A stretch of DNA of 64,000 nt from Prochlorococcus sp. AG-418-M08 (GCA_003213955.1 QCMG01000003.1:9769-73768), one strand, 5' to 3'. Positions 23,900 through 50,244 are shown, numbered from the stretch's first letter. Made by a program: numbers and translations. The notes: generated from the letters alone by a model not told the origin.

Positions 23900-24943
23900 T
23901 TAATTATCTAAATCATCAAATAAAACTAAATCACCATTCTTTATAAATTTATTTGCCTTTTTCCCAATAACCCGATTTAGATTTGATGCTGACAAACCAT
24001 TGCCTGGTCTCATCATTGCTATTGACTCAGAATCGATTATTTCACCAATTTCAATATTTCGCTTGGCGGTAATACTCTTTGTAGCCCATATTTTAGATTT
24101 TTTTTCATTTTCTGATATTGTCTTTTCATGACCTCCCAAAGCAACCTCTAGACCCCTAATGTCAGTTACTAATTCCTTTAAGGATTTTGAATCACAAGAA
24201 ACTTTCCAATCCTGAGCATTTGGAATATTTTTAAACAAAGTTATATGCTTCTCAATTATTGAAGCTCCTCTACAAACAGCCCCAATTGGAACTAAATTTC
24301 CCTCAGTATGATCTGAATATCCCACTGGCCCAGAAAAAAATTTCCTTATCTGATCAATAACGCTAAGATTAACTAAGTGTTTTGGTGTGGGATAGATTGT
24401 TGTGCAATGTAAAATCGCAAGTTCTCGACATCCGCAATCGTATAGAAATTCAATAGTCTCTTTGATCTCGTTCAATTTATACATTCCAGTTGATAATATT
24501 ATTGGTTTCTTAGTTAAAGCTATTTTTTTCAAAAATGGGAAATTACCTAATTCACCTGAACCTACTTTTATTGCAGAAACCTTAATTTCATTTACTAAAA
24601 AACTCAATACTTCCTCATGATGTGGTGTACACAAAAAGGTTAGATTATTTGCGATACAAGAATCTCTAGCATATTTAATAATCAAATCATCTAATTCTTT
24701 TTCTGAAATTCTAGAAAACCAATCTTTATCTTTTTTTGAAATAAACTTCTCAGTATAAAAATGTTGTGTTTTAAATGCATCTACTTTGGCATCAATGGAC
24801 ATTTTTATAAGAGGATCTAAATTTTGCTTTTCTCCAAGATGTGAAACACCAGCTTCAGCTATAATATAAGTAGGGCGATTTGCACCTATTATTTTTCCAT
24901 CAATATTGATTGTTGTTGAGAATTTAAGAAGCTTATCGGGCAC
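23900..24943 (-). CDS. neuB: Nonulosonic acid synthase (NeuB family) with a C-terminal SAF domain
   Basis: YIIAEAG, IKVGSGE, ILSTGM, LHC...YP, GYSDHT, IIEKH.TL and MRPG; GTG start overlaps the sqdB-like stop. Confidence 0.93.
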   Translation of the reverse strand: MPDKLLKFSTTINIDGKIIGANRPTYIIAEAGVSHLGEKQNLDPLIKMSIDAKVDAFKTQHFYTEKFISKKDKDWFSRISEKELDDLIIKYARDSCIANNLTFLCTPHHEEVLSFLVNEIKVSAIKVGSGELGNFPFLKKIALTKKPIILSTGMYKLNEIKETIEFLYDCGCRELAILHCTTIYPTPKHLVNLSVIDQIRKFFSGPVGYSDHTEGNLVPIGAVCRGASIIEKHITLFKNIPNAQDWKVSCDSKSLKELVTDIRGLEVALGGHEKTISENEKKSKIWATKSITAKRNIEIGEIIDSESIAMMRPGNGLSASNLNRVIGKKANKFIKNGDLVLFDDLDN

Positions 24944-26099
24944 TTTTATTATTCCAAAAATGAGTAGGTTCTATAATACTTGGATCAATTCTTTCACTAT
25001 ATTTTGAAACTGTATTAATCATTTTTATAATAAAATCTTCATTTAAATATTCTGGCTCTAAACCTAAATCAACTAGTGCACTATGTTTAGCATTAAAGTA
25101 ATGATTATCTAATTCTTTTCTTGGATTTGGGTATAGACCTATATCGACCTCTTTACCAATCATAATGCATGCTTTTTTTACCTTTTTAGCTAATTCAAGC
25201 ACAGTAAATTGTTCTGTAAATTGATTAAAAACTCTAAATTCTCCTTTGCTTGCTGGATTATTCAAAGCGATTTCAACACACTTTAGAGTATCTTTTATAT
25301 TTAACATTCCTCTTGTTTGACCCCCTTTGCCATAAACAGTTAAAGGAATACCCAGATATGCTTGAACAATAAATCTATTCAGGACAGTTCCGAAATACTG
25401 GTCATAATGAAAGCTGGTACATAATCTATCATCAATAATAGTTTCATCAGTTTCTATTCCATAAACTATACCTTGATTCAAATCTGTTACTCTAAAATCC
25501 CAAGACCTACAAACAAACTCCAGATTTGCTGAATCGTGCACTTTACTTAGATGATAAAAAGATGGTGGTCTTTTAGGATATAAAACTTTATCGCTTCTCC
25601 CATTGTGATTTATTTTTAACCAGCCTTCTTCAATATCTATATTTGGGGTTCCATATTCACCCATGGTTCCAAGTTTTATGATGTGAATATCAGGATTATT
25701 CCTTTGAATTGCAAAAATTAAATTAAGGGTTCCTAAAACATTATTTCTTTGAGTTTCAATACAATTATGCTGAGAAATCATTGAAAAAGGAGCAGAAGGT
25801 TGTTCTGCATAGTGGATAATAGCTTCTGGCTTAAAATCTGAAATTGTATTATTCAAAAATCTACTATTTTCACTTATATCTCCTAAAAATAATTTTATTT
25901 TATTTTGAGTTAAGTTTTCCCATATTTTTATTCTTTTATTTAGATTATTTACTGGAGTAAGTGGCTCAACTTCAGCCTGACTCTCCCAAAACCTTTTTAT
26001 ATAGTTATCTAAAACAGCAACATCATGACCTTTTTTAGAAAGATACATAGCGGTGGGCCATCCTAGATATCCATCACCCCCAAGAATTAAAACTTTCAT
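24933..26099 (-). CDS. sqdB: UDP-sulfoquinovose synthase (SqdB/SQD1/Agl3) homologue
   Basis: ILGGDGYLGWPTA, KLGTMGEYGTPNIDIEEG, SFYHLSKVHDS, TDLNQGIVYG, FGTVLNRF, GKGGQTRG and GEFRVFNQFTE are all SqdB-specific. Probably a paralogue, not the sulfolipid copy. Confidence 0.92.
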   Translation of the reverse strand: MKVLILGGDGYLGWPTAMYLSKKGHDVAVLDNYIKRFWESQAEVEPLTPVNNLNKRIKIWENLTQNKIKLFLGDISENSRFLNNTISDFKPEAIIHYAEQPSAPFSMISQHNCIETQRNNVLGTLNLIFAIQRNNPDIHIIKLGTMGEYGTPNIDIEEGWLKINHNGRSDKVLYPKRPPSFYHLSKVHDSANLEFVCRSWDFRVTDLNQGIVYGIETDETIIDDRLCTSFHYDQYFGTVLNRFIVQAYLGIPLTVYGKGGQTRGMLNIKDTLKCVEIALNNPASKGEFRVFNQFTEQFTVLELAKKVKKACIMIGKEVDIGLYPNPRKELDNHYFNAKHSALVDLGLEPEYLNEDFIIKMINTVSKYSERIDPSIIEPTHFWNNKSAR

Positions 26100-26792
26100 T
26101 CAACTTAAATTTAGATTCATTAGAATCTCAAGAATTTTAACATCATTAATGCCATCAACATCTATATTTCTTGGCCAATTTATTATTTCGTAGGCACTAG
26201 GAGATTGGAAAAAAGTTCCATTATTAATAAGATTTTCATATTTGGAGAGCAATAAATTGCCTAAACAAAAATATTTTGGTTTTAGTTGTTTATTGTAATA
26301 AGTCATTCTATCCTCTTCAAAAACAAATTTTACTTCATCATCTTCAATTTTCCTTTGATTCATAGCATGAAAGTTATGTGGAATATTCGTAATAGTTTGG
26401 GCAGTAAGATATTTATCATTTGATTTTATAGCTTTAAGTAAATTTATAAAATCAGATGGTTCTAAAAGAGGGCTTGTTGGTTGTATCAAGAAAACATATT
26501 CATATTTTTCATTAGACCTTTCTAAAAAATCCTTCACTACAGCATGAACATTTACTTCATCTCCAGCTAAGTTTTCTGGTCTTAAGTCAATTTCACAACC
26601 TGATTCAGATGCTATGGTTGCAATTTTTTTGTTGTCAGTGGAGCATATCAGTTTATCTATGATTCTCGATTTAATAGATGCATTGATGCAATATTTTATT
26701 AAAGGTACTCCACATATTGGGAAAATATTTTTTAGATGTATTCCTTTTGAGCCTCCTCTAGCTGGTATAAATCCAAGTATATTTTTTGTCAT
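26100..26792 (-). CDS. neuA: CMP-nonulosonate synthetase (acylneuraminate cytidylyltransferase)
   Basis: IPARGGSKGI..KN, STD, RPENLA.D, QPTSPL and IDVD. Confidence 0.92.
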   Translation of the reverse strand: MTKNILGFIPARGGSKGIHLKNIFPICGVPLIKYCINASIKSRIIDKLICSTDNKKIATIASESGCEIDLRPENLAGDEVNVHAVVKDFLERSNEKYEYVFLIQPTSPLLEPSDFINLLKAIKSNDKYLTAQTITNIPHNFHAMNQRKIEDDEVKFVFEEDRMTYYNKQLKPKYFCLGNLLLSKYENLINNGTFFQSPSAYEIINWPRNIDVDGINDVKILEILMNLNLS

Positions 26793-26950
26793 ATTAGATT
26801 CAAAAAATTAATAGCTATTTAATTACAAAGGCTTCAGTTTCACACCAAGCTTCAAAAAGATGGTAGCTATATTAAAGAATAATAAAATTATTATTGAATT
26901 TAGCATATTTAATAAAATCCTTAAATGATTTTTTTTAAATATTTTCATTA

Positions 26951-28099
26951 TTAAGTGGCATAAGATAAATTTTTAAGAATCAAGTTTTTATCAATTTTAA
27001 TTTTTGAGATATGATCAGCTATTTTTAAACCTGCTTTGCCGTTTCCATATAAATTTGAAGAACTTTTAATAATTTGATGATAATCTTTATCATAAAGAAT
27101 TTTTTTAATAGCATTCTCAATCTCTGTAATATTATGACTAACTGAGACTATGTTTTCAGAGCGTAATCTAAGATTTTGCCTGCGTCCAATATTTACTGTA
27201 GGCAACTTAAAAGCTGTTGATTCTATTATACCTGCAGAACTGTTACCAATAAATAAATTAGCAATATTCTGAAGCCCCCAAAAAAGCGGTGCCTCTAAAT
27301 TGCTAAAAATTTCCATATCAAGAAGCTCAGAATATTCGTTCAAAGCATTCATAATGCCCTCATAACCTGGATCACTACATGGTTTAATTGCTATTATTTT
27401 AAAATCAAAACTCCTTAATGATTCTAGAGTTATTTTCATTTGTAAGTATGATTTTTCTGGTTCAGTGGTCTCTGGATGTTGTAAAAGGATAACTATCTTT
27501 TTTTTTGTATTTAATGACAATAAATTTTTAACTTTACAAGCTGAAAAAAAATTTTTATCCATTATTTCATCCAAATGACAATCACCAACATTTAAAACTC
27601 TCCATTTTTCTTCTCCCATCATTTCAACATTTAATGCACTTTGTGAATTAGATACATAATGTAAATGGGATAATTTAGTAATAGAGTGTCGCATTTGTTC
27701 ATCAATAGATCCACTTAGATCGCCGCCTTGAATATGAGCTATAGGGACGCCTAAAGTGGTGGCAGCTAATGCTGCAGATAATACCTCTCCTCGATCTCCA
27801 TAAAGTATGCAAATATCAGGTTTAGATTCTTCCAAAGTTAACGAAATCCCTTTAACTGCATTAGAAAGTGCAATAGCTCTATCTAAAGTTGAAGATCCAT
27901 TTTGATAAAGTGGAATTTCATATTGAACTTCAAAATCTTTCTTAATTTCATTAACTGTGAACCCAAACTTTTTATCTAAATGTTGATCAGTAACTGCTAA
28001 TAAAAGATTTATATTTCTATTTTCATCTAATGCTTTTAGCATTTGTTTCATAGCTCCATATCCGCCTCTTTTCCCCGTTAAAACATATACCTTCCTCAT
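26951..28099 (-). CDS. neuC: Hydrolysing UDP-N-acetylhexosamine 2-epimerase
   Basis: TGKRGGYG, GDRGE, HIQGGD.SGSIDE..RH.ITKLSHLH, QHP.T, IGNSSAGIIE, NIG.RQ..R and YGNG.AG. Confidence 0.93.
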   Translation of the reverse strand: MRKVYVLTGKRGGYGAMKQMLKALDENRNINLLLAVTDQHLDKKFGFTVNEIKKDFEVQYEIPLYQNGSSTLDRAIALSNAVKGISLTLEESKPDICILYGDRGEVLSAALAATTLGVPIAHIQGGDLSGSIDEQMRHSITKLSHLHYVSNSQSALNVEMMGEEKWRVLNVGDCHLDEIMDKNFFSACKVKNLLSLNTKKKIVILLQHPETTEPEKSYLQMKITLESLRSFDFKIIAIKPCSDPGYEGIMNALNEYSELLDMEIFSNLEAPLFWGLQNIANLFIGNSSAGIIESTAFKLPTVNIGRRQNLRLRSENIVSVSHNITEIENAIKKILYDKDYHQIIKSSSNLYGNGKAGLKIADHISKIKIDKNLILKNLSYAT

Positions 28100-28449: not shown

Positions 28450-29172
28450 ATGAATTGGGAACATTCAAGATTCTCAGATGATGAGATTTACCTTAATCAT
28501 AATAACTACAAAAAACCCAAACAGACACACAAGAAAATTCTAAATATAATTGATAGTCTTAATCCTGAAGCAGGCCAAACAATTTTAGATTGTGGTTGTG
28601 CAGCTGGGGAACTTATATATTTTCTAGTTAGTAATTTTAAAGAAATAAATATTTCTGGTTTTGATATTTCTCCAAAAATGATAAGTAAGGCTAAAGAGAA
28701 AATACCTGGTGTAGAATTCTTTGTACAGGATTTATCTCAAAAATTTTCAGATTGGTGCATAAAACCTAAGAAAGATATTGTTATCTTATCTGGAGTTATT
28801 CAAATTTTTGATGATTTTGAATATGTAATAAATAATCTCATATTATGCGCAAATAATAGAGGTAATATTATTATTTCTTTGCCATATAATAAAGATCCTA
28901 TAGACGTAATAATGAGATATAGAAGATTTAATGATAAAAAATGGGAATCTGGATGGAATATTACTTGTAAAGAATCTATTGAAAATTTTCTAAAAACAAA
29001 ACAGGAAATAAATAATTTCTTTTGGGATGATGTAACATCTCCTGATAATCTCTCTAAAAAAAAAAATGATCCCATGAGAAAATGGACTACGAATATAAAT
29101 GGTAAAAATACTACAGTTGTAGGAAGTAGCCAAATTATAAATCAAACAATATTAGTTATTAAACTTAATTAA
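28450..29172 (+). CDS. Class I SAM-dependent methyltransferase
   Basis: ILDCGCAAG, GFDIS..MI and D.V...GV.QIFDD. Confidence 0.85.
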   Translation: MNWEHSRFSDDEIYLNHNNYKKPKQTHKKILNIIDSLNPEAGQTILDCGCAAGELIYFLVSNFKEINISGFDISPKMISKAKEKIPGVEFFVQDLSQKFSDWCIKPKKDIVILSGVIQIFDDFEYVINNLILCANNRGNIIISLPYNKDPIDVIMRYRRFNDKKWESGWNITCKESIENFLKTKQEINNFFWDDVTSPDNLSKKKNDPMRKWTTNINGKNTTVVGSSQIINQTILVIKLN

Positions 29173-29247: not shown

Positions 29248-30435
29248 TTAAGAAATTTTATTTCTAAGTTTCCATTCCCCGTCTTCTTTTTTCCACAAAT
29301 GTTCACTTCTTCCCTTATCTATTATAATTTCGAATTCCGTTTCATCTAGAGAGATATAATCCAAGAAAAATTTATAATTTCTTTTTGGGAACTCCCCATC
29401 AAACTTTTTGACTAATGAAACTCCTTCTTCTCTTGTAATATGATGATTCCTTATTTCCGAAGAGGCATCATAAGTTGCTCTACCAATTCCATATTTTATA
29501 AATGTTGTGTAAAAGTGGAACCCATCAATTTTATCGTCAAGGGATGCATATGTTGAATAGGTGCCCTCAGACCTTATTGAATTATCTTTAAATCCACAAT
29601 TGTCAACTGCATAATAATAGTTCTCTTGAGGTATCCATTTTCTGTAATAACTCATAAAATGAACTTCTAAATTGTCTGATAAATTATTCAAGGGTTTATA
29701 CATATTTAAATCATTTTCAGAAATACCTTCATTGCTTAATTCGGAAAGGGTTAAACTCCCAATCCTCATCTCATCAACAGATCCCTTAAAAAAATTATTC
29801 GGCATTTTATTTTGATCCCAATCTAAATTACTACCACCCTCCGCTTGATTCTCTCCATAAAAAACTAAATCTATTCCATAATCCCTAGCGATCCTAGGCC
29901 CAATATATTTTTGCCCAATAATAAATGGTTGAAATGGATGAAGAAGATTTTTAAAAGCAAGTGACGTAAGTTTTTTATGAACAGATCTATCAGGTGTTAT
30001 TAATATATTATCGTGACCTGACTCTATCCACGCAACAAAATTTTTCCATCCGATGTCAGTATAACTATGAGGAGACCAAGTAACGGTAAGGGGATTCATT
30101 CCATATTTATTTTTAAGTATATGAGAGACATATGCACTATCTTTACCCCCGCTTCCTGGAACAACTACATCATAAGAACCATCTGATCTTCTATGCTTAT
30201 CAAGTAATATTAAAAGTTCTTCTTCTCTTTTCTGCCAATTTACGACATTGTATTTATATTCGTGATAGAGACATGCTGTACATATTCCATTTTTAAAACC
30301 TATGGTGTTTCTCTTCCTAGTTTGATTCTTTAAATTATTGTTTTTAAATTCAGGAATTGTACTAGGTCTTTGATTTGAAACTACACATTTTTTACAGTAA
30401 ATTACTTTTTCAGGCAGTCCCCAAAGTGCTTTCAT
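29248..30435 (-). CDS. N-acetyl sugar amidotransferase (WbuX/PseA/PtmG family, PP-loop)
   Basis: YCKKCV.SNQRP, C.AC, DVVVPGSGGKDS, YGEN.AE, YASLDDK.D and K.GIGRA..DAS.EIR. Confidence 0.93.
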   Translation of the reverse strand: MKALWGLPEKVIYCKKCVVSNQRPSTIPEFKNNNLKNQTRKRNTIGFKNGICTACLYHEYKYNVVNWQKREEELLILLDKHRRSDGSYDVVVPGSGGKDSAYVSHILKNKYGMNPLTVTWSPHSYTDIGWKNFVAWIESGHDNILITPDRSVHKKLTSLAFKNLLHPFQPFIIGQKYIGPRIARDYGIDLVFYGENQAEGGSNLDWDQNKMPNNFFKGSVDEMRIGSLTLSELSNEGISENDLNMYKPLNNLSDNLEVHFMSYYRKWIPQENYYYAVDNCGFKDNSIRSEGTYSTYASLDDKIDGFHFYTTFIKYGIGRATYDASSEIRNHHITREEGVSLVKKFDGEFPKRNYKFFLDYISLDETEFEIIIDKGRSEHLWKKEDGEWKLRNKIS

Positions 30436-30488
30436 AGAAGATTTTTTTTTATTTTAACTTAATAGAGAATAAAAATTAAAAAGGTAAA

Positions 30489-31082
30489 CTATCCTAATAA
30501 AATTTTTATTAATTCTCTACCTTTTCTTCCTGATAATTCAGGATGAAATTGGACTCCAATTTTATTATTTAGATTTGAAACTGCTACAAACTTTTTTTCA
30601 TTTATTTCATAAAATGCAAGCTCATCTTTCTCTCCAGTCCATAAGATCCCAAATGAATGGGAAAAATAATAATATCCACTCAAAAAAGACATCTCTTGAT
30701 GAATGAATTTTACATAGTTCCAGCCTGTATGAACTCTTTTTTGAATACTATTTGACGCAATAGAAATAACAGATTTATTACCGAAATTAAATCCTTTTAT
30801 AGAACCTTTTAAAGATTCATTACTATCTTTTTGTAGAAGGTGCATTCCCAAGCATATACCAAAAATCTTTTCAAAATTACTTTCAAGAATTAATTTCGTA
30901 ATACCTTTTTTGTCTAATTCATTTTTAACAAATTTAAAATTACCTACTCCTGGCAAAACAAGTATATCTGGTTTTATTGATAAATCCTGAATGTCGATCA
31001 GCCTCTGATTGAAAACTTTTTCAAATAATCTTTTTACATTAGCTGTGTTTGAAGAACTATAAGTTACAATTCCAATCCTCAT
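30489..31082 (-). CDS. HisH-like class I glutamine amidotransferase (WbuY/PtmE-type)
   Basis: LPGVG.F, GICLGMH (Cys nucleophile), YFSHS and QFHPE triad; ATG at 31082 overlaps the upstream TGA. Confidence 0.9.
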   Translation of the reverse strand: MRIGIVTYSSSNTANVKRLFEKVFNQRLIDIQDLSIKPDILVLPGVGNFKFVKNELDKKGITKLILESNFEKIFGICLGMHLLQKDSNESLKGSIKGFNFGNKSVISIASNSIQKRVHTGWNYVKFIHQEMSFLSGYYYFSHSFGILWTGEKDELAFYEINEKKFVAVSNLNNKIGVQFHPELSGRKGRELIKILLG

Positions 31083-31852
31083 TTTCTTACTTCCCATTTC
31101 CTTGATATTTCTTTTCTTATATTCTCTATATCTTTATAGTTATATATATAGTATTGAGATAAAGCTATTCCTTGAAATCCATAATTTAGAATATTTTCAT
31201 AATTGTAATTAATATGCATTGAACCAGAAATAATAGTATCAATATTTATTTTGCTCATTATTTTTAATTTAGATAAGGTAATGTCATTTACTTTTTTATT
31301 AACTCCATCAAAATCTATTAATCGTATCAAAACTTCAATCAAACCTTTGTCACAAAGACTTGATATGTAATCATATGCACTAAGATTGTGAGCTGGTTTA
31401 ATTAATTCTCTGCCGGCACTAATATAAAAATTAATATCACCATTATTTTCTACTCTTATTGATGGAGAAAAAACTATTGCTTGTGAACCAAATTCCTTAA
31501 ATAGTGTTTCTATTGGTATTTTATTTTGAAGAATTGCAGAATTTAAGGCTACTCTACAGGCTCCTTTTTCTAAAAGATTTTCAATTTCCTCTATAGAATT
31601 AATTCCACCTTGAACAGTAATTGGAATATGTATATTACGACAAATAAACTTTAAGAGATCTAAGTCAATATGAGTATCATATAAACTCCCTGTAATGTTG
31701 TTTATGTAAATTTCATCAGCTATAAAATCATCATTTCTTTTAGAGAGAAATTCGTCTAAATCTTCAATTACCCGAAGCCCTTCAAATCTCTTCCCTTTAA
31801 TTACTTTGTTTCCCTTAATATCAATTTTAGCAATAATTCTTTTAGTAGTCAT
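31079..31852 (-). CDS. HisF-like TIM barrel (WbuZ-type)
   Basis: KRII..IDI.G.KVIKG..FEGLR, PITVQGGI and VALNS; divergent C-terminal half. Confidence 0.85.
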   Translation of the reverse strand: MTTKRIIAKIDIKGNKVIKGKRFEGLRVIEDLDEFLSKRNDDFIADEIYINNITGSLYDTHIDLDLLKFICRNIHIPITVQGGINSIEEIENLLEKGACRVALNSAILQNKIPIETLFKEFGSQAIVFSPSIRVENNGDINFYISAGRELIKPAHNLSAYDYISSLCDKGLIEVLIRLIDFDGVNKKVNDITLSKLKIMSKINIDTIISGSMHINYNYENILNYGFQGIALSQYYIYNYKDIENIRKEISRKWEVRK

Positions 31853-35287: not shown

Positions 35288-35809
35288 ATGAAATTTTTTA
35301 TCCTTGATGTAGATGGGGTTATGACTAATGGGAATTTTTATTATAGCGTTGAAGGAAAAGTTTTAAAAAGTTTTGGACCTGATGATAGTGATGCATTATC
35401 AATACTAAAGAAATACATGAGCATAGAATTTATTACAGGAGATAAAAAGGGCTTTAATATTAGTAAAAAAAGAATTACTGATGACATGGGTTACAAACTA
35501 AGCTTAGTTAGTACTATGAGAAGAAAAGAATGGATACAAGAAAAATACAATTTAAATGATGTAATATACATGGGTGATGGCATATTTGATGTACTTGTTA
35601 TGAATGCGGTTGGATATTCAATTGCACCTGCTAATGCCGACAAAAATGCTATAGATAAAGCTGATTTCGTTACAGAAAGAATAGGAGGTAACAGAGCTGT
35701 TTCAGAAGCTTGTTTGCATATTCTTAAAAAGTTTTATGGTTTACAATCATTGGAAGATGAAATTAATTCTAGGAATAAATTAGATACTGGGGAATGGAAT
35801 ATATGCTGA
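35288..35809 (+). CDS. KdsC/YrbI-like HAD phosphatase
   Basis: LDVDGVMT.G..YYS.EG...K.F...D, ITGD, YMGD..FD, PANA and GG..AV.E. Confidence 0.85.
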   Translation: MKFFILDVDGVMTNGNFYYSVEGKVLKSFGPDDSDALSILKKYMSIEFITGDKKGFNISKKRITDDMGYKLSLVSTMRRKEWIQEKYNLNDVIYMGDGIFDVLVMNAVGYSIAPANADKNAIDKADFVTERIGGNRAVSEACLHILKKFYGLQSLEDEINSRNKLDTGEWNIC

Positions 35810-36966
35810 GGAGTTTCCTAGAGAGGACAATAAAAAGTAATAAGATCACCCTATTGGGAGTTGGCCCAATGAGTTTAAATTGTGTAAATGCTACCATAGC
35901 AATATCAAATCAGTATTCTCTTCCTATTTTTTTGATAGCGAGTAGAAGGCAAATTGACTCAAAAGATTTTAATGGTGGTTACGTAAATAATTGGGATACA
36001 AAACAATATTCAGATTATGTATTAAATAGAGATAAGGGAGGGAAAGTAATTTTAGCTAGAGATCATGGAGGGCCGTGGCAAAATCCTTTTGAAGTCGAGA
36101 AGAAATTAAGTTTATCAATGGCATTAGATTCTGCTAAAAAGTCTTTTAAAGAAGATATAGATTGCGGTTTTAAAATATTACATATAGATACTTGCATAGA
36201 TATACATTGTGATGTTAAAGCCAAGGAGTCTTTGGAAAGATTATTTGACTTATATGAATTTTGTTGGAATTATGCTCAATCTAAAAACAAAGAAGTAATT
36301 TTTGAAATTGGTACTGAAGAACAAAGTGGCAGTACAAATAAAATATTAGAGTTGGAATATAACTTAAATGAGATTACAAACTTTTGCGATAACAACTTTC
36401 TCCCAAGACCAGCTTTTGTAGTTGTACAAACTGGTACAAAAGTTATGGAAACAAGGAATGTAGGCTCATTTGATAAACCTTTAAGAGTTGAGAATGAAAT
36501 TCCTGCCCTCATTCAAGTACCTAAAATAGTAGAAATCTGCAGAAAATATAATATTTTTATAAAAGAGCATAATGCTGATTATTTGTCTGATGATGCCTTA
36601 AAGTGGCATCCTAGATTAGGCATTCATGCTTCAAATGTTGCCCCAGAATTTGGAGTAACTGAAACGCTATCTTTTATTAAAATTTTAGAAGACAATAATC
36701 AAAAAAAATTAGCTGATGAGTTTCTAAGCATATCTTTTCAATCTGATTACTGGAGAAAATGGATGTTAAAAGATTCAAAAGCTGATGATAGGCAGAGAGC
36801 TATTATAGGAGGTCATTATATATTTGGAACGAATAAGTTTAAAGAAATCAAAAAGAGGGCAACATTTGATTTACTAAAAAAAGATATAGATTTAGATTCT
36901 TATTTAGAGGATAATATAAAAAAAAGTATCATTAGGTATTTAAAAAATTTTAGATTAATTAAATAG
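35803..36966 (+). CDS. GatZ/KbaZ-like (tagatose-6-phosphate 4-epimerase-type) TIM barrel
   Basis: ASRRQID, RDHGGPWQ, LHIDT, EIGTEE, VVQTGT, KEHNADY and NVAPEFG parallel the GatZ motifs GDHLGP, HLD, GTE, VVQPG, EAHSTDY and KVGP. Start is 35794 or 35803. Confidence 0.75.
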   Translation: MLRSFLERTIKSNKITLLGVGPMSLNCVNATIAISNQYSLPIFLIASRRQIDSKDFNGGYVNNWDTKQYSDYVLNRDKGGKVILARDHGGPWQNPFEVEKKLSLSMALDSAKKSFKEDIDCGFKILHIDTCIDIHCDVKAKESLERLFDLYEFCWNYAQSKNKEVIFEIGTEEQSGSTNKILELEYNLNEITNFCDNNFLPRPAFVVVQTGTKVMETRNVGSFDKPLRVENEIPALIQVPKIVEICRKYNIFIKEHNADYLSDDALKWHPRLGIHASNVAPEFGVTETLSFIKILEDNNQKKLADEFLSISFQSDYWRKWMLKDSKADDRQRAIIGGHYIFGTNKFKEIKKRATFDLLKKDIDLDSYLEDNIKKSIIRYLKNFRLIK

Positions 36967-36968
36967 AG

Positions 36969-37793
36969 ATGAAAAGAGTAGCAACAATTATCTTGAATAG
37001 AAACTTACCTGAACCAACGGAAAAGTTATATGAACATATCTATAATAATGAGAATAATCTCACAGATATATTTGTGATAGAAGCAGGTTCAGATAAAGAA
37101 TTGGTTTCTAAGTATTGTACTTGGCATGTAAAAAAAGACGATGTTTTAGTCAAAGGCCTGAGGTATTGCAGAGGTATGAATTATGCCTTATTTGAATTAA
37201 GTAAAAGTAAAAAGTTTGAATCATATGATGCATTTTTTTTACTTACAAATGACACAATTTTATGTCAAAAAAATACCCTCGAGAGACTTCTTGAAATCCT
37301 TGATAATCATAAGCAACTTGGAATAATATCTCCTTGTTCTGAAAAATGGGGAGAAAAATATCTTCTCTTAGAAGAAAAAACAAAGTATTTTTGGTTTATT
37401 CATAATAATGCATTTATGCTAAGAAAAGAGTTTGTAGAGGGAATAGCAATTAAAAAAAACCCAAGCTATTTAAATTTCGTATTTGATGGGAATAATTTCA
37501 GAGGCTTCCTCTCGGAAAGTGAATTGATTGCTAAGGCATACGCAAATAATTGGGCAGCAGGAGTGACAACTAAAGTTTATGCCGAGGAAAATGAATCTTA
37601 TTTATTGAATCATTCTGACCTAATAAAAACAGAGACTTATGAGGAGAATCTTAAACTTTATATAGAGGAGGGATTGCTTTGGATAAAAGAAAAATATGGA
37701 TTTGACAGTCATTGGACAATGCATCAATATGTAAAGTCTTTCTATGATAAATTTTTTGATTACAACCCAGAGTATTTAAAATACAAAATTTAA
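36969..37793 (+). CDS. GT2-like (GT-A fold) glycosyltransferase
   Basis: ATIILNRN, FVIEAGSD, GMNYAL, LLTNDT and GIISP. Confidence 0.65.
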   Translation: MKRVATIILNRNLPEPTEKLYEHIYNNENNLTDIFVIEAGSDKELVSKYCTWHVKKDDVLVKGLRYCRGMNYALFELSKSKKFESYDAFFLLTNDTILCQKNTLERLLEILDNHKQLGIISPCSEKWGEKYLLLEEKTKYFWFIHNNAFMLRKEFVEGIAIKKNPSYLNFVFDGNNFRGFLSESELIAKAYANNWAAGVTTKVYAEENESYLLNHSDLIKTETYEENLKLYIEEGLLWIKEKYGFDSHWTMHQYVKSFYDKFFDYNPEYLKYKI

Positions 37794-37798
37794 ATTAT

Positions 37799-38143
37799 AT
37801 GGATGTTATTGAAAAACCATGGGGCAAAGAAGAAATTTTGCAAATCAATAGTAAATATATGGTTAAAAGATTAACAATGTATAAAGGTCATCGTTGTAGT
37901 CTGCAGTATCACTTAAAAAAAATAGAAACTATTTTTGTTTTAAAAGGAAAACTCAACATACTATCCGGAAAAGATAAAAATTCTCTTGAATCTGTGATAT
38001 ATGAAGATGGCCAATTTATAACTTTGTTTCCTGGAAATATTCATAGAATGGAAGCAATTGAAGATTGTGTTTACCTAGAGGCATCTACTCCTGAAATGGA
38101 TGATGTTGTAAGAATAAAAGACGATTACAATAGAATAAATTAA
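37799..38143 (+). CDS. Cupin (mannose-6-phosphate isomerase type II C-terminal-like)
   Basis: EKPWG.E, SLQYH..K.ET and PG..HR..A. Confidence 0.85.
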   Translation: MDVIEKPWGKEEILQINSKYMVKRLTMYKGHRCSLQYHLKKIETIFVLKGKLNILSGKDKNSLESVIYEDGQFITLFPGNIHRMEAIEDCVYLEASTPEMDDVVRIKDDYNRIN

Positions 38144-39708
38144 TGTCTTATAAAGTCATAATTCCTACTGCAGGACTTGGAAGTAGATTGGGAAAATTGA
38201 CAAAGAATATAAATAAATCACTTATTAGTGTTTCCAATAAACCGATTATATCTTGGCAATTTGAAAAATTTAATGATGATTGTGAAATAATTATTCCGTT
38301 GGGATACAAAGGAAAGATTGTTAAAGAATTTTTAGAGCTAGTATATCCAAAAAGAAAAATAAAATTTGTTGAGATCCATAATTTTGAAGGGCCAAATTCT
38401 GGCTTAGGTCATACTCTATTAAAATGTGAAGAATATCTAAAAGAAAAATTTATATTTTTAGCTTGCGATTGTATGTTTAAAGAAAAGATTCCAGATTGTA
38501 ATACCAATTGGTTAGGTTATTCTTCATCAATTCCAAAAAATAATAACTATAGAATGGTTGAAATCACAAATGGGCAAGCAAGAAAAATTCATGAAAAAGA
38601 TCAAAAACAATTGCCGAATTTTTATCCATATATTGGCATTTGTAATATTATAAATTTCGAATTATTTTGGGATTCCTTGAGAAATAGTCTTGATAGATCA
38701 GTAGAGGAAGGTGAAGCTTTTGGAATAAATGCTATATTACAGAAAAATATAGAATTTACAGTATTACCTTTTACATGGTCTGATACTGGAAGTTTAAAAG
38801 GTTTAGAAGATACAAGAATTAACTATAAACTTAAAAATGAGTTAAATATCTTAGAAAAAGATAATGAGCACATTTGGTTTATCGATAATAAGGTTGTTAA
38901 GTTTTCTACTGATAAACAATTTATTCAAAATAGAGTAAAAAGAGTAAGTTTTCTTAAAGGGTATGTTCCAGATATCATAGATTACTCAGAAAATATGTAT
39001 TTATACAAAAAATTCAAAGGTGAGGTTTTTTCCTCTCTGAATGACATTAATAAATTCAAAAAATTACTTATTTTTAGCAAGAAATTCTGGAAAAAATATG
39101 AATTAGAAAATTTTAAGTATAGTGAATTTGAAAATTTTTGCAAAACTTTCTATAAAGATAAAACTATTCAAAGAACTAAAGATTTTTATAAAAATTTTAA
39201 AAGATTTGATAACTTAGATTACATTAACGGTATAAAAGTAAACCGTTTTAATTCAATTATGGGTTTAATTAACTGGGAAGATATATGTAAAGGTATTCCA
39301 GTTAGATTTCATGGGGATTTTCACTTTGAAAACATACTATTTAGTAAAAATGAATTTATGTTTATTGATTGGAGGCAAGATTTTGGCGGCCATCTAGAAT
39401 ATGGAGATATTTATTATGATTTATCTAAATTATTACATGGAATAATAGTTAATCATTCAATAATAAAACAAAAAAAATTTAAGGTTGATTGGAATAAAAA
39501 TAAACTTAATTATTCAATTAATAAATATGAATTCCAATATGATTGCGAAAAAGTATTTTATGATTGGCTTGATAAGGAAAATTTTAATATTAAAAAAGTA
39601 AACATAATAACAGGACTAATTTTTCTTAATATAGCTTCTCTACATCATTATCCATACTGTCTACTTTTATATGGATTAGGAATAGAAAAGCTTGATCAGA
39701 ATGTATAA
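38143..39708 (+). CDS. Bifunctional nucleotidyltransferase + APH/choline-kinase-like phosphotransferase
   Basis: N-terminal IPTAGLGSRL....K.L, ACD and W.DTG; C-terminal FHGDFHFENI (Brenner motif), FIDWR and GD.YYDL.KL. Confidence 0.85.
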   Translation: MSYKVIIPTAGLGSRLGKLTKNINKSLISVSNKPIISWQFEKFNDDCEIIIPLGYKGKIVKEFLELVYPKRKIKFVEIHNFEGPNSGLGHTLLKCEEYLKEKFIFLACDCMFKEKIPDCNTNWLGYSSSIPKNNNYRMVEITNGQARKIHEKDQKQLPNFYPYIGICNIINFELFWDSLRNSLDRSVEEGEAFGINAILQKNIEFTVLPFTWSDTGSLKGLEDTRINYKLKNELNILEKDNEHIWFIDNKVVKFSTDKQFIQNRVKRVSFLKGYVPDIIDYSENMYLYKKFKGEVFSSLNDINKFKKLLIFSKKFWKKYELENFKYSEFENFCKTFYKDKTIQRTKDFYKNFKRFDNLDYINGIKVNRFNSIMGLINWEDICKGIPVRFHGDFHFENILFSKNEFMFIDWRQDFGGHLEYGDIYYDLSKLLHGIIVNHSIIKQKKFKVDWNKNKLNYSINKYEFQYDCEKVFYDWLDKENFNIKKVNIITGLIFLNIASLHHYPYCLLLYGLGIEKLDQNV

Positions 39709-39716
39709 TTAATATT

Positions 39717-40046
39717 ATGAATATTAAGGAAAAATCATTAGCTTACTTCAAGTCTTTCTCTAATAAAAATCTAGAGGAATTGAAAATTTTTTTTAGTGAG
39801 GATGTTTATTTAAGAGATTGGGAAATTGAAGCTAAAGGTATTAAGAAAGTTTTAGAAGCAAATAAAAATATCTTCGATTCTGTTGAAAGTATTAATGTAG
39901 AACCAATTAATATTTACGAAAATAAAAATTTTATTATTGCTGAATTAGAAATCCTAGTCAATCAAATTGATAAATTACTCGTTGTTGATATTATTAGTTT
40001 TGATTCATCATTCAGGATTAATTCAATAAAAGCATATAAAGGGTAG
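39717..40046 (+). CDS. NTF2/SnoaL-like protein
   Basis: YF..FS.K.LE.L...F.EDV.L.DW, with C-terminal I..I.AY; 109 aa. Confidence 0.8.
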   Translation: MNIKEKSLAYFKSFSNKNLEELKIFFSEDVYLRDWEIEAKGIKKVLEANKNIFDSVESINVEPINIYENKNFIIAELEILVNQIDKLLVVDIISFDSSFRINSIKAYKG

Positions 40047-45890: not shown

Positions 45891-46832
45891 TTGGAAAAAT
45901 TACATCCTGATTTAAGAACCAAAATTATAGCTCTTGCATTATTTAAATCATGTAGACCAAAACAATGGACAAAGAACTTTCTAATTTTTGCAGTTATTTT
46001 ATTTTCTTTTATCTTTAATAAATTAGTATTTATTAATTGTTTATTAGGCTTTATAAGTTTTTGTTTTATTTCATCTTCAATTTATTTATTTAACGATATT
46101 AAAGATATATCAAAAGACAAACTACACCCTAAAAAAAAGTTCAGACCTATTCCTAATGGAAAATTACCCATAAATATAGCTATCAAAAGCTCTATTTTAT
46201 TAGCATTTATAAGTCTTATCTTTGGTTATTTAATATCATTTAAATTTTTTATAATAATTATTATTTATGGGATTATCCAAATCGCATATTGTTTAAGATT
46301 TAAAAAAGAACCAATTTTAGATGTTTTATGCATTGCATCAGGTTTTATGCTGAGGGCTCTTTCTGGAGTCGCAGCTTCAGAAATAGGTTTTTCTCCTTGG
46401 TTTATTTTAACTATTGGTCTTTTAGCATTATTTCTTGCTGTTGAGAAGAGAAAAGCTGAATTAAACTTTTACATCAAGGAATCTATATTAACCAGAGAAA
46501 TATTAAAGAAATATACTTTGCCTCTTCTCGAACGATATGCCAATTTATTAGCCACAAGTACTTTTATTAGTTATAGTTTATGGGCTGCAGGACCATCATT
46601 AAACGGTGCACAATCTTCATGGATGTTATTATCTATACCTTTTGTTCTAGTTGGTATTTTTAGATATCAATTCATAAGTGATAATAAAATTTCAAGCATA
46701 AGGAAAGCTCACGGCAATTATATTTCTACAGAAAATCCAGAGTTAATTTTGCTTTATGACAAAGGGATTCGATTTTCAATTATTGGATGGTTACTAACAA
46801 TTATATGCGTAGGACTATTTCTCACTTACTAA
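45891..46832 (+). CDS. Polyprenyl-phosphate phosphoribosyltransferase (UbiA family, DPPR synthase-like)
   Basis: RPKQWTKN, Y..NDI.D...D..HP.K..RP...G, D...IA.GF.LR..G and KRKAEL. Confidence 0.9.
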   Translation: MEKLHPDLRTKIIALALFKSCRPKQWTKNFLIFAVILFSFIFNKLVFINCLLGFISFCFISSSIYLFNDIKDISKDKLHPKKKFRPIPNGKLPINIAIKSSILLAFISLIFGYLISFKFFIIIIIYGIIQIAYCLRFKKEPILDVLCIASGFMLRALSGVAASEIGFSPWFILTIGLLALFLAVEKRKAELNFYIKESILTREILKKYTLPLLERYANLLATSTFISYSLWAAGPSLNGAQSSWMLLSIPFVLVGIFRYQFISDNKISSIRKAHGNYISTENPELILLYDKGIRFSIIGWLLTIICVGLFLTY

Positions 46833-46897
46833 TAATTTATATTCTAAAAAGGTTTAAAACATATTAAATTAAGATCATTCTAAAAAGAATTTGAAAC

Positions 46898-47836
46898 ATG
46901 AAAATTTTTATTCCTGGAGGTGCTGGATTGGTAGGCATAAATCTAATAGCAGCTATTAAAGAAAAATATCCAAAATGGGAACTAATAGTTGTTGATAAGA
47001 AATATCGTTCAATAAAAGTTGCAGAAGAAATTTTTCCAGATGTTAAATTTATTTGTGAGGATTTAACTAATGATATTAATCAAAGCTGGCCTTTAGAAAT
47101 TAAAGAATGCGATGTTTGTATAATGCTTCAAGCTGAAATTGGATCAAAAAGATCAAATTTATTTGAATTAAATAATGTTTTCTCTACCAAAATAATATTA
47201 AAGCAACTGAAGATTGCAGGAATTGAAAGAGTGATACATGTAAGCAGTTCAGTGGTTAATTCAAAAAGTGATGATTTATATACTGTCACTAAAAGGAAAC
47301 AAGAATTACTCGTTGCTGATATTTTTCCAAAATGCGTCGTTTTAAGACCTACTTTAATGTTTGGATGGTTTGATAGAAAACATCTTGGTTGGTTAGCAAA
47401 TTTTATGGTCAAATATCCTTTTTTTCCAATCCCTGCGAAAGGAGACTTTGTAAGACAACCACTATTCGTTGGTGATTTTTCCTCTATAATAATAAGTTGT
47501 ATTATAGATTCATCCATTACCGGAAAATATAATATATCTGGTTTAGAAAAAATTAAATATTTAAAACTAATGAGAATGCTAAAGGAAATTAAATCCTCAC
47601 AAATTTTCTTTATCCATTTACCAATACCAATATTTGCTTTTTTATTAAAGATTTGGTCTTTAATTTCAGAAAATCCTGCCTTTACTACTTCACAACTATA
47701 TTCACTTATTGCTGGGGATCAATTTGAAATTATAGATTGGCCAAATATTTTTAATGTAAAATCTACACCATTTAAAGAAGCATTAAAAATAACTCACAAA
47801 CATAAAAAATTTAGCAAAATAAATATACCATTTTAA
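46898..47836 (+). CDS. NAD-dependent epimerase/dehydratase (atypical SDR)
   Basis: PGGAGLVG, HVSSS, Y..TK..QE, LRPTLMFG and QPL.V.DF. Confidence 0.85.
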   Translation: MKIFIPGGAGLVGINLIAAIKEKYPKWELIVVDKKYRSIKVAEEIFPDVKFICEDLTNDINQSWPLEIKECDVCIMLQAEIGSKRSNLFELNNVFSTKIILKQLKIAGIERVIHVSSSVVNSKSDDLYTVTKRKQELLVADIFPKCVVLRPTLMFGWFDRKHLGWLANFMVKYPFFPIPAKGDFVRQPLFVGDFSSIIISCIIDSSITGKYNISGLEKIKYLKLMRMLKEIKSSQIFFIHLPIPIFAFLLKIWSLISENPAFTTSQLYSLIAGDQFEIIDWPNIFNVKSTPFKEALKITHKHKKFSKINIPF

Positions 47837-48133
47837 TTAAATTAATTCATTTTGAAAAACATTTTTATCATAGATAACTTAATAATATAAAAAAAGAACA
47901 TAAGCAAAAGTATTAAATTAAATCGATATCTAGTTAGAAAATATTTTAAAAATCAAAAAATATAGAGTAAAAATTTCAAAATAAAATAAAAATAACTTAA
48001 AATAATCTAGGAAAAAAGATCCATGAATATAAAATCTTTGGTGATAGATTAAAATGAGATTAAATATTATTCAAGTTAATTATGGATTAGAATATCAAAA
48101 TAAATTATCTTAGTAAATCAGTCATATATTCCT

Positions 48134-48868
48134 ATGAAGGATAATTATTTCAAGAGTGCATTTATACTTGGAGGGACAAGTACTATAGCTAAATCGATAT
48201 GTATAAAATTGGCTGAAAATGGTTGTAAAAAGTTTCATCTCGTTAGTAGAGATCCAGCAGCAAACAAACAATTAGTAGAGAAATTAAGAATTTTTTATAA
48301 ATCTGAAGTTACTGAAGAAAAGAATGATTTGTTATTAAATAATTCTTTGATAAACAACTTCAAACCAAAGGTAGACTTTTATGACATTTATTTAATAGCT
48401 CCAGGATTAATTGGGAATAATAATCTTGCCAATTCAAATTCAAAAGAGGCACTTAAAATTAGTTCGATAAATTATACAGGCATTATTCCATGGCTGATAG
48501 AAATAATGACTGAAAATCGAATTAAATATAAAGGTAGTTTGTGGGTCTTAAGTTCTGTCGCATCAGATAGAGGTAGACCCTCAAACTATCATTATGGTGC
48601 CTCTAAGGCAGCATTATCTATTTTCTGTGAAGGGCTTCTTCTACGCTGTGTTAATAAACCTTTTTCAGTAAGAATTATAAAAGCAGGATATATAACTTCT
48701 CCGATGACTGATGCGGCACCTAAGTTTCTTTGTACTTCTCCAAATAGAGTTGCCTCTATACTTTTAAAGAATCCTTATAAAAGAGGGATCGAATATCTTC
48801 CATGGTGGTGGAATTTAATTATGATTGCAGTTCGTAAATTACCTTCTTATTTAGCCGCAAAATTATGA
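48134..48868 (+). CDS. DprE2-like SDR (polyprenyl-phospho-2-keto-pentose reductase)
   Basis: ILGGTS.IA, NY.G, SSVA.DRGR.SNY.YGASKA and IK.G...SPMT. Confidence 0.85.
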   Translation: MKDNYFKSAFILGGTSTIAKSICIKLAENGCKKFHLVSRDPAANKQLVEKLRIFYKSEVTEEKNDLLLNNSLINNFKPKVDFYDIYLIAPGLIGNNNLANSNSKEALKISSINYTGIIPWLIEIMTENRIKYKGSLWVLSSVASDRGRPSNYHYGASKAALSIFCEGLLLRCVNKPFSVRIIKAGYITSPMTDAAPKFLCTSPNRVASILLKNPYKRGIEYLPWWWNLIMIAVRKLPSYLAAKL

Positions 48869-50244
48869 CAGAAAATTTAAAAAATTTTTCTAAAACTATT
48901 TCAGGATGGGGTCGCAACTCAAAAGCTTTAGTAAAAATTCTAAATCCTAAAAACAAAGAAGAATTACAAGACATTATTACAAATTCAAAAAAAAATTCTC
49001 TTATTGCGAGAGGTCTTGGAAGATCTTATGGCGATGCTGCTCAATTAAATAAAGGATCTGTTATTAATCTGGCTTATTTTCAAAATATTTATTTAAATAA
49101 AGCGAAAGGAATTGTAATTGTTGGAGGTGGAGTTAGCTTTAACGACTTGTTAAAAAAAATAATCCCAGAGGGATTTTTCTTGCCAGTTTCTCCAGGGACA
49201 AGAAATGTGACAGTTGGAGGCGCTATCGCTGCAGACGTTCATGGTAAAAATCACCATGTAAATGGCAGCTTTGGTAATCATGTAATTAATTTATTAATAG
49301 TAGATGGTTTAGGCCAAATTAAAAGTCTAAGTCCTAGAAAAAATGCGAATAAATCTGAAAAGGACAAATTTTGGGCGACCATAGGGGGTATGGGTTTAAC
49401 AGGAGTAATTATTGAAGCATCATTCTCTCTTATTCCTATTAAAACTTCAAAAATTAGTGTAGACACCTCAAGACACAAAGATATTGATTCTCTCATGGAA
49501 GAGATGATTATTTGCGATAACAAATTTCAATATAGTGTTGCCTGGTTGGACACACTTAATAAAAGCGGGAGAGGAATTCTTACTTGTGGTAATCACGCTA
49601 GCCCTGAACAACTAAAAAAGAAATTTGAAATTGATAATCCTTTAGGCTATTTGCCAAAATCATTAGCTACTGCTCCTCCTTTCATACCTAATGGTATTTT
49701 AAATAGATTAACAGTAAATGCTTTCAATGAAGCATATTTTAGAAAAGCTCCAAAATCAAAAAAACAAGAATTACAAGACATAACAAGTTTTTTTCATCCT
49801 CTTGATGGCATTCAAGAATGGAATAGAATATATGGCCCAAAAGGATTTCTTCAATACCAATTTGTAGTTCCTGATAGCTCAGCAAATTTAATAAAAGAAT
49901 CTATTGAGATATTTAGAAAAATTGGAATACCTAGTTTTCTTACTGTATTAAAAAGATTTGGGGAAGGAAATTATGCTTTTCTATCATTTCCTAAAAAAGG
50001 ATGGACTTTAGCTGTAGATATTCCATTATCTATACCTAAGCTTGATAGAACATTATTTGAATTAGATATAAAAATAGCTGAAGCTGGGGGAAGAATATAT
50101 TTAGCAAAAGATTCTAGACAATCTTCAGATATTCTCTCACTAACATATCCTAAATTAAATGAATGGAAAGTAATACAAAAATCAATGGATCCAAAAAGAA
50201 TTTTCTCTTCTGATTTAGCAATGCGACTGAATTTAATTAAATAA
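48865..50244 (+). CDS. DprE1-like FAD-linked oxidase (polyprenyl-phosphoribose 2'-oxidase)
   Basis: GWGR, RGLGRSYGDAA, PVSPGT..VTVGGAIA.D.HGKNHH..GSFG, FLQYQFVVP, FL.VLK.FG and GGR.YLAKDSR. Confidence 0.92.
   Translation: MTENLKNFSKTISGWGRNSKALVKILNPKNKEELQDIITNSKKNSLIARGLGRSYGDAAQLNKGSVINLAYFQNIYLNKAKGIVIVGGGVSFNDLLKKIIPEGFFLPVSPGTRNVTVGGAIAADVHGKNHHVNGSFGNHVINLLIVDGLGQIKSLSPRKNANKSEKDKFWATIGGMGLTGVIIEASFSLIPIKTSKISVDTSRHKDIDSLMEEMIICDNKFQYSVAWLDTLNKSGRGILTCGNHASPEQLKKKFEIDNPLGYLPKSLATAPPFIPNGILNRLTVNAFNEAYFRKAPKSKKQELQDITSFFHPLDGIQEWNRIYGPKGFLQYQFVVPDSSANLIKESIEIFRKIGIPSFLTVLKRFGEGNYAFLSFPKKGWTLAVDIPLSIPKLDRTLFELDIKIAEAGGRIYLAKDSRQSSDILSLTYPKLNEWKVIQKSMDPKRIFSSDLAMRLNLIK

Follow-up and report, generated by a model that had tools for sequence, protein, structure and literature searches.

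Organization of the Operon

The stretch of DNA analyzed here (the window) comprises 64,000 nucleotides of Prochlorococcus sp. AG-418-M08 (GCA_003213955.1, QCMG01000003.1:9769-73768). It contains one tight minus-strand operon, neuC-neuA-sqdB-neuB, in which a paralogue of the UDP-sulfoquinovose synthases SQD1 and SqdB is encoded among predicted enzymes of nonulosonic acid synthesis. The first gene, neuC (26951-28099), encodes a predicted hydrolysing UDP-N-acetylhexosamine (UDP-HexNAc) 2-epimerase, which passes TIGR03568 in a profile search (352 bits for a cut-off of 236) and matches PF02350 (224 bits). It is followed by neuA (26100-26792), a predicted CMP-nonulosonate synthetase of the cytidylyltransferase type (PF02348, CTP_transf_3, 87 bits; PseF model, 116 bits, under its cut-off of 206), and then by the SQD1/SqdB paralogue, of the Pro101 type (24933-26099), which is the proposed C6-sulfonating enzyme. 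The last gene, neuB (23900-24943), encodes a predicted nonulosonate synthase of a distinctive subfamily marked by an NAQDWKVS signature (PF03102, 205 bits, plus a SAF domain; TIGR03569, 291 bits, under its cut-off of 400). All four genes lie on the minus strand. The SqdB-like protein scores 438 bits against NF041015, under the equivalog cut-off of 575; this cut-off is strict, since the canonical SqdB copy of the same genome, described below, also falls under it (334 bits).

An earlier reading made from the sequence alone (below, the sequence-only reading) had described a full-length SqdB homologue coupled inside a nonulosonate operon, and had suggested that the operon makes a sialic-acid-like sugar sulfonated at C9. 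The four open reading frames (ORFs) lie where it had placed them, profile searches assign each of them to its family without ambiguity, and the two junctions that it reported can be read directly from the sequence. At the neuA/sqdB junction, ...AGTTGA is followed immediately by ATGAAAGTT, so that the neuA TGA abuts the sqdB ATG. At the sqdB/neuB junction, the neuB GTG lies at 24943 and the sqdB TAA ends at 24933, an overlap of 11 nucleotides; translated from this GTG, the NeuB N-terminus aligns with those of the NeuB proteins of relatives.

The same reading had recognized no sqdX, no LegB/PseB dehydratase, no LegC/PseC aminotransferase, and no NeuD-type acetyltransferase, and these absences hold in the ORFs that were scanned. 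Among window ORFs of at least 100 amino acids (with a few of 100-250 amino acids left out), no PseB/LegB dehydratase, DegT/LegC/PseC aminotransferase, or NeuD/PseH-type acetyltransferase was found; the dehydratase models TIGR04180 and TIGR03589 gave only weak cross-hits with RmlB and the SqdB-like protein. No sqdX-like gene stands beside the operon sqdB. Genome-wide, there is one NeuB (that of the operon) and one DegT, the latter on contig C6 between a photolyase gene and fabI/hisB, which is a core context. A legionaminic acid (Leg) or pseudaminic acid (Pse) route would thus be one without a visible upstream half.

The SqdB Paralogue and the Canonical Copy

The operon SqdB aligns with Arabidopsis SQD1 (PDB 1QRR) over residues 2-383, at about 57% identity (477 bits, E 4e-142). 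It keeps GxxGxxG, H96, T145-M146-G147-E148-Y149, S180, and Y182-H183-x-x-K186, and it contains the segments GTMGEYGTP and SFYHLSKV, both of which are invariant in 18 relatives. Agl3 needs the equivalents of H96, M146, and S180 (PMC4388408, PMC8987622), and every residue with an impairing alanine mutant in Agl3 is kept except Arg101, with Ser185 standing in place of the Agl3 Thr185. The [ST]MG...YxxxK pattern distinguishes sulfoquinovose synthases from 4,6- and 5,6-dehydratases (PMC8987622), and the paralogue lacks the dehydratase acid/base pair (TDE/TDK). As the SQD1 signature is kept, the 4-keto-5,6-ene/sulfite mechanism is to be expected of this enzyme.

Compared with SQD1, the paralogue carries the changes R101P, R229S, and D231H. 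The segment around position 101 reads AEQPSAP instead of AEQRSAP, and Pro is found at this position in all 120 best database matches. An alignment with hhalign places SQD1-type position 101 at Lys84 of GalE, which we take to correspond to Gly102 of WbpP, a wall of the sugar pocket. According to a preprint, WbpP G102 is among the sugar-contacting residues, and the G102K mutant did not abolish the N-acetyl preference. The R101A mutant of Agl3 is inactive (PMC4388408). Another candidate, in which SQD1 N228 was equated with GalE N199 (WbpP A209), as part of two smaller walls of an N-acetyl pocket, was dropped, as hhalign puts GalE N199 at position 239.

A second sqdB homologue lies elsewhere in the genome, on contig C4 (C4:12960-14153; 397 amino acids), and reads AEQRAAP, hence Arg101. 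It is directly adjoined by a glycosyltransferase family 4 (GT4) gene resembling sqdX (C4:11799-12932), and the pair is located between gcvP and rplT. Alicyclobacillus and a Caldilineaceae genome also have a GT4 beside their Arg-type sqdB, and the C4 protein shares 44-47% identity with these. Judging from these neighbors, the two genes on C4 are the canonical sulfolipid pair. In the genus set (at least 151 species-level genomes of 0.8-1.9 Mb), the C4-type sqdB is core, being found in 128 of 151 genomes and, where completeness is 90% or more, in 50 of 51. The operon SqdB is 43% identical to the C4 protein, and its copy is found in none of the other 150 genomes. Because a canonical core copy exists on C4 and the operon copy is missing from these 150 genomes, the operon sqdB is, on comparative grounds, an acquired extra paralogue. 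In genome G127 of the same genus, an SqdB-like gene that has diverged to 51% identity and is interrupted by one in-frame TAA (contig C2:140151-141314, locus L094) lies directly downstream of a cassette-type NeuB; this may reflect the decay of a second acquisition or an error in sequencing.

The genome itself (1.66 Mb in 29 contigs, about 30% G+C) matches psaA, psaB, and rbcL motifs; a psbA motif gave no match in it.

Distribution and Phylogeny

Retrieval from GTDB with an SqdB profile gave 80 loci, 42 of the Arg type and 38 of the Pro/Ala type at position 101. All seven of the neu-containing loci were of the Pro type, and both of the sqdX-linked loci were of the Arg type. The Pro/Ala type forms one group in a maximum-likelihood tree (SH-aLRT, the Shimodaira-Hasegawa-like approximate likelihood-ratio test, 94). 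Within it, a clade of 18 rows with SH-aLRT 99 includes the window gene, and 16 of these rows are neu-linked, compared with none of the 44 Arg-type rows in the tree. The remaining 29 Pro/Ala-type genes are unlinked, 22 of them in a mainly Solirubrobacterales clade and 7 in Acidobacteriota and Chloroflexi. Ten changes are specific to the linked clade (R36K, D40E, D78N, A113C, Y160W, I161L, P173L, A204V, R229S, and D231H). The sequence-only reading had predicted a clade separate from the sqdX-linked copies, and this is what the tree returns. It had also named two circumstances that would count against it, a linkage unique to this genome and the lack of any other sqdB; the linkage recurs in many lineages, and the canonical sqdB-sqdX pair is present on C4.

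Near relatives (60-72% identity, from genomes of 33%-68% G+C) have NeuA-SqdB-NeuB adjacent, with NeuC upstream, in seven out of seven cases looked up. Other orders also occur in the clade, namely NeuB-NeuC-x-NeuA-SqdB, NeuC-SqdB-SDR-NeuA-NeuB (SDR, short-chain dehydrogenase/reductase), and NeuB-SqdB. With at least four differing gene orders, the association of neu genes with sqdB has survived rearrangement. The reciprocal search used the NeuB profile of the cassette (the linked neu and sqdB genes) alone on metagenome contigs. In 28 of the loci that it recovered, each flank is 4 kb or longer, and a Pro-type SqdB homologue was found within 6 kb of the cassette-type NeuB in 25 of them. One of the three NeuB loci without SqdB also lacks the NeuB signature.

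Across 49 cassette loci, the only near-universal neighbors are NeuB, NeuC, and NeuA (36 of the 49 have a NeuC homologue no more than 6 kb from the SqdB-like gene). They are followed in frequency by a 2-hydroxyacid-dehydrogenase-like gene (17/49), an ABC exporter (13/49), and WbuX (9/49), and no glycosyltransferase family exceeds 7/49. Several loci hold, a few kb away, a second complete NeuB-NeuC-NeuA set of the ordinary type. As the near-universal partners are limited to NeuB, NeuC, and NeuA, with no conserved glycosyltransferase, the inherited unit is a four-enzyme module and not a glycan assembly line.

Several further features of these loci can be mentioned. The D-2-hydroxyacid-dehydrogenase-like gene is often placed between NeuC and NeuA (e.g., L107:6251-7210 and L108:4935-5906), and it is not present in this window. 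The SqdB protein had no match in a collection of phage records. SqdB-like genes of 50-61% identity stand beside NeuB, NeuA, or NeuC on IMG/VR contigs classed as viral (L191-L196, L199, L206, L207, L214, L253, and L268), and cysH adjoins a more distant SqdB-like gene on IMG/VR L223, L224, and L249. At Solirubrobacterales loci (L015, L016, L027, L087, and others), the unlinked Pro/Ala-type SqdB lies by a gene for a multi-pass membrane protein and a GT2 that, by eye, has the look of a polyprenol-phosphate sugar synthase. This neighborhood suggests that Actinomycetota route a sulfo-sugar via a lipid carrier.

The Partner NeuB Subfamily

The cassette NeuB was compared with Neisseria meningitidis NeuB (1XUU) and with the ordinary second copies of the cassette loci. 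It keeps the catalytic and metal residues E25, E134, H215, E234, and H236, together with an Arg314 equivalent, and the AEAG, GSGE, SDHT, EKH, and RPG segments are conserved. The subfamily has its own invariant residues (W75, R78, H108, K247, and K289) and substitutions (His for Phe112, Thr for Asn184, Trp for Phe288, and Lys for Ala291). It also has a one-residue insertion together with the invariant NAQDWKVS, a Lys two residues past the Asp247 equivalent, and a shortened beta2-alpha2 loop that carries the invariant Trp75 and Arg78. The added invariant basic residues fall in substrate-side segments. That a NeuB fold can accept a C6-anionic substrate is shown by eukaryotic NANS, which uses N-acetylmannosamine 6-phosphate (ManNAc-6-P); in the human enzyme, the phosphate is bound via the alpha2-beta2 loop, and residue 134 is near it (PMC8208679). 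By analogy, the added basic residues of the cassette NeuB could hold a C6 sulfonate.

The linkage might also reflect a shared glycan and not a shared pathway. The paralogue would then make ordinary UDP-sulfoquinovose, or a close analogue, for a residue separate from an ordinary NeuC/NeuB/NeuA nonulosonate of the same glycan. We regard this as rather unlikely. The close relationship to SQD1 (about 57% identity) with its intact catalytic signature fits this explanation, Pro-type enzymes are found without neu genes too, precursor genes are commonly mixed in glycan loci, and Sulfolobus Agl3 provides a surface-glycan precedent (PMC4388408). Against a separate sulfoquinovose residue stand a dedicated, remodelled NeuB that is accompanied by the SqdB gene in 25 of 28 loci and the fact that no glycosyltransferase co-travels with that gene (7/49 for the top family). 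Moreover, loci needing an ordinary nonulosonate have a second complete neu set, and this genome already has a UDP-sulfoquinovose synthase on C4.

Sulfite Supply

The Prochlorococcus genome has one cysH. Two sister members of the neu-linked clade come from very small genomes, L011 (Saccharibacteria, 0.6 Mb) and L010 (1.0 Mb). In both, a PAPS_reduct protein of 225-232 amino acids (150-152 bits) is encoded immediately upstream of the SqdB gene (L011:3025-3723 and L010:9293-9970), the order in L011 being NeuC-MT-NeuA-CysH-SqdB-NeuB, where MT denotes a methyltransferase. These proteins carry the motifs of an adenosine 5'-phosphosulfate (APS) reductase, CC...CxxC and a C-terminal ECGLH, and each is the sole clear CysH of its genome. 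No sulfite reductase was found in the L011 or L010 genome. A missing GalU would have left UDP-GlcNAc as the substrate, but one of the small genomes has a near-cut-off GalU, so this comparison does not favor either UDP-sugar. The simplest reading of these neighborhoods is that the APS reductase would furnish sulfite specifically to the SqdB enzyme.

This adjacency bears on a second alternative, in which the paralogue has lost sulfite addition and acts as a UDP-HexNAc 5,6- or 4,6-dehydratase (as Pen/TunA or PseB/LegB do), opening a route to a 9-deoxy nonulosonate. In favor of such a loss, Agl3 gives UDP-glucose-5,6-ene when sulfite is left out (PMC4388408, PMC8987622), two arginines near active-site segments (101 and 229) are lost here, and an SDR starts every Leg/Pse pathway. 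It is, however, improbable. The paralogue has the SQD1-specific TMG and His183 and not the dehydratase acid/base motif. Neither here nor, as a rule, in other loci does the cassette come with an aminotransferase, an acetyltransferase, or a 4-reductase, and the APS reductase adjoins clade members in genomes without sulfite reductase. In a third alternative, some other nucleophile (thiol, sulfide, or amine) would attack the 4-keto-5,6-ene, and the nonulosonate would be C9-thio or otherwise C9-substituted. The general reactivity of the enone as a Michael acceptor and the changes at pocket residues 101, 229, and 231 speak for it, but it is very improbable, as the APS reductase adjacency indicates sulfite and no precedent was found.

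Proposed Pathway

Sulfonation before nonulosonate synthesis would proceed as follows. The SQD1-type paralogue would oxidize C4 of a UDP-hexose, most likely UDP-N-acetylglucosamine (UDP-GlcNAc). Elimination of the 6-hydroxyl would give the 4-keto-5,6-ene, to which sulfite would be added at C6, and re-reduction of C4 would yield UDP-6-deoxy-6-sulfo-GlcNAc. NeuC would then remove UDP and epimerize C2, and the specialized NeuB would condense the resulting 6-sulfo-ManNAc with phosphoenolpyruvate (PEP), so that the hexose C6 becomes C9. Finally, NeuA would couple the nonulosonate to CMP, so that the activated sugar can be transferred onto a surface glycan. To our knowledge, all characterized NeuC-family enzymes act on 2-acetamido sugars, and the Arg314 equivalent kept in the cassette NeuB is presumably an N-acetyl contact; for these two reasons, UDP-GlcNAc is favored over UDP-Glc as the substrate. 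A sub-variant, in which 9-sulfo-Kdn is made from UDP-sulfoquinovose, is possible.

The association of sqdB with neu genes is real and non-random. The gene identities, the operon structure, the second paralogue, the reciprocal co-occurrence of the SqdB clade and the NeuB subfamily in many lineages, and the availability of a sulfite source are shown by the present analysis. The interpretation put forward by the sequence-only reading is plausible and partly supported, but unproven. Its sulfite chemistry is backed by the SQD1 signature and by the APS reductase adjacency, while the substrate, the feeding of the SqdB product to NeuC, the acceptance of sulfonated intermediates by NeuC, NeuB, and NeuA, and the 9-sulfo product are what we infer from sequence and neighborhood. 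That the pathway runs from C6 sulfonation of UDP-GlcNAc to a Neu5Ac-like CMP-9-deoxy-9-sulfo nonulosonate (Neu5Ac, N-acetylneuraminic acid) is a tentative conclusion, with a chance not far short of even. The broader claim is that the four genes are a widespread, horizontally mobile module for a CMP-activated 9-deoxy-9-sulfo nonulosonic acid, whose C-S bond would be stable. It may hold, and we put it forward with rather less than even confidence; it would require that a member of the SQD1 family can sulfonate UDP-GlcNAc and that the NeuB subfamily has become adapted to a 6-sulfo hexose.

Several points tell against the sulfonated nonulosonate. Pro101 is common to the 29 unlinked genes, so it predates the neu linkage and is no marker of the pathway. 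R101P and R229S might impair the handling of UDP-Glc or sulfite, and not make room for an N-acetyl group. The partner gene is not within the flanks for 2 of the 18 clade members and 3 of the 28 cassette-type NeuB loci, and ATP sulfurylase was not found in the L011 and L010 genomes, which are possibly incomplete. We know of no NeuC or NeuB that accepts a 6-sulfonated sugar, and every argument in favor comes from sequence comparison or gene neighborhood.

The sequence-only reading knew of no described pathway for such a sugar, and literature searches likewise gave no link between sqdB or sulfoquinovose synthase and nonulosonate genes. They also returned no natural 9-sulfo sialic acid and no 6-sulfo-GlcNAc nucleotide, the names of sulfo-sialic acids leading only to synthetic inhibitors and unrelated mentions. 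A recent nucleotide-sugar survey left out compositions with both N and S, and would therefore have missed a sugar of the 6-sulfo-GlcNAc type. If the proposed sulfonated product is real, it would constitute a new chemical class of nonulosonic acids, with a carbon-bound sulfonate as opposed to an ester, and a second biological use for the rare sulfite-addition chemistry of SQD1. As a surface residue it would carry two negative charges, and as a new organosulfonate it would reach the marine sulfur cycle from many heterotrophs as well as from the most abundant type of phototroph. Picocyanobacterial islands of the kind that carries the operon encode surface structures recognized by phages, so that a rare cap with a strong negative charge and a probable resistance to sialidases would, if it exists, bear on strain-level phage escape.

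The Surrounding Surface-Glycan Island

The operon is part of a low-G+C surface-glycan island that extends from position 1 to about 56,400 of the window and ends at argF, ftsH, and ribD. The island encodes glycosyltransferases, methyltransferases, a carbamoyltransferase, rmlABCD, a UDP-glucose dehydrogenase, and an N-acetyl-sugar amidotransferase set, and a tRNA-Ala gene lies inside it. The amidotransferase set (WbuX, HisH-like, and HisF-like; 29248-31852, minus strand) is matched by TIGR03573 (316 bits), HisH (115 bits), and WbuZ (122 bits). This acetamidino-forming set adjoins the cassette, and the window has no FucNAc pathway (FnlA/CapE-type gene) as an obvious alternative source of substrate. 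Of the 41 cassette loci that span 11 kb or more, 9 have a WbuX homologue, and in seven of these its identity is 53-60%; on this basis, the set is a candidate accessory to the cassette sugar.

Divergent from neuC, a class I S-adenosylmethionine (SAM) methyltransferase gene (28450-29172, plus strand) gives Methyltransf_31/25/12 matches. Its product is a possible, weakly supported tailoring enzyme; a clear homologue occurs in one cassette locus only, and other kinds of methyltransferase are common near the cassette.

Two other groups of genes in the island can be noted. At 45891-50244, a UbiA-family prenyltransferase, an epimerase-like gene, a short-chain dehydrogenase, and an FAD_binding_4 oxidase stand in a row that resembles the mycobacterial decaprenyl-phospho-arabinose (DprE1/DprE2) route. 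The operon at 35288-40046 encodes a haloacid dehalogenase (HAD) protein like KdsC or Kdn-9-P phosphatase, two proteins without an NCBIfam match, a cupin, a nucleotidyltransferase fusion, and a small sixth gene product (39717-40046), and it may specify a second activated-sugar pathway.

Comparison with Known Systems

The operon SqdB resembles the UDP-sulfoquinovose synthases (SQD1, Agl3, and bacterial SqdB) in being an extended SDR with about 57% full-length identity to SQD1, with the T145/Y182/K186 triad, TMG-EY, and His183. It differs from them by Pro101, Ser229, and His231, by its score under the NCBIfam cut-off, and by its position between neuA and neuB. It has no SqdX/SQD2/SqdD partner nearby, and the sulfolipid role is filled by the C4 copy.

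With the CMP-Neu5Ac pathway of Escherichia coli K1 and Neisseria meningitidis, the cassette shares the NeuC, NeuB, and NeuA families and, as proposed, the logic leading from a UDP-HexNAc to a ManNAc-type hexose, a nonulosonate, and a CMP-sugar. It differs by the inserted SDR gene, by a NeuB of a separate subfamily with extra Lys and His residues, and by the lack of NeuD. The Leg and Pse pathways likewise have an SDR acting on a UDP-HexNAc before NeuC/NeuB/NeuA-like steps, and lead to a C9 without a hydroxyl, as would be the case here. Unlike them, the cassette has no 4,6-dehydratase motif, aminotransferase, or N-acetyltransferase, and C4 would return to a hydroxyl, not to an amine.

The eukaryotic NANS route offers a parallel for the proposed condensation, in which PEP is joined to a C6-anionic ManNAc on a NeuB fold to give a C9-anionic nonulosonate. 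That route has a phosphate ester as its anion and removes it at a later step, whereas the cassette, which has neither a kinase nor a dedicated phosphatase, would install a stable C-S sulfonate.

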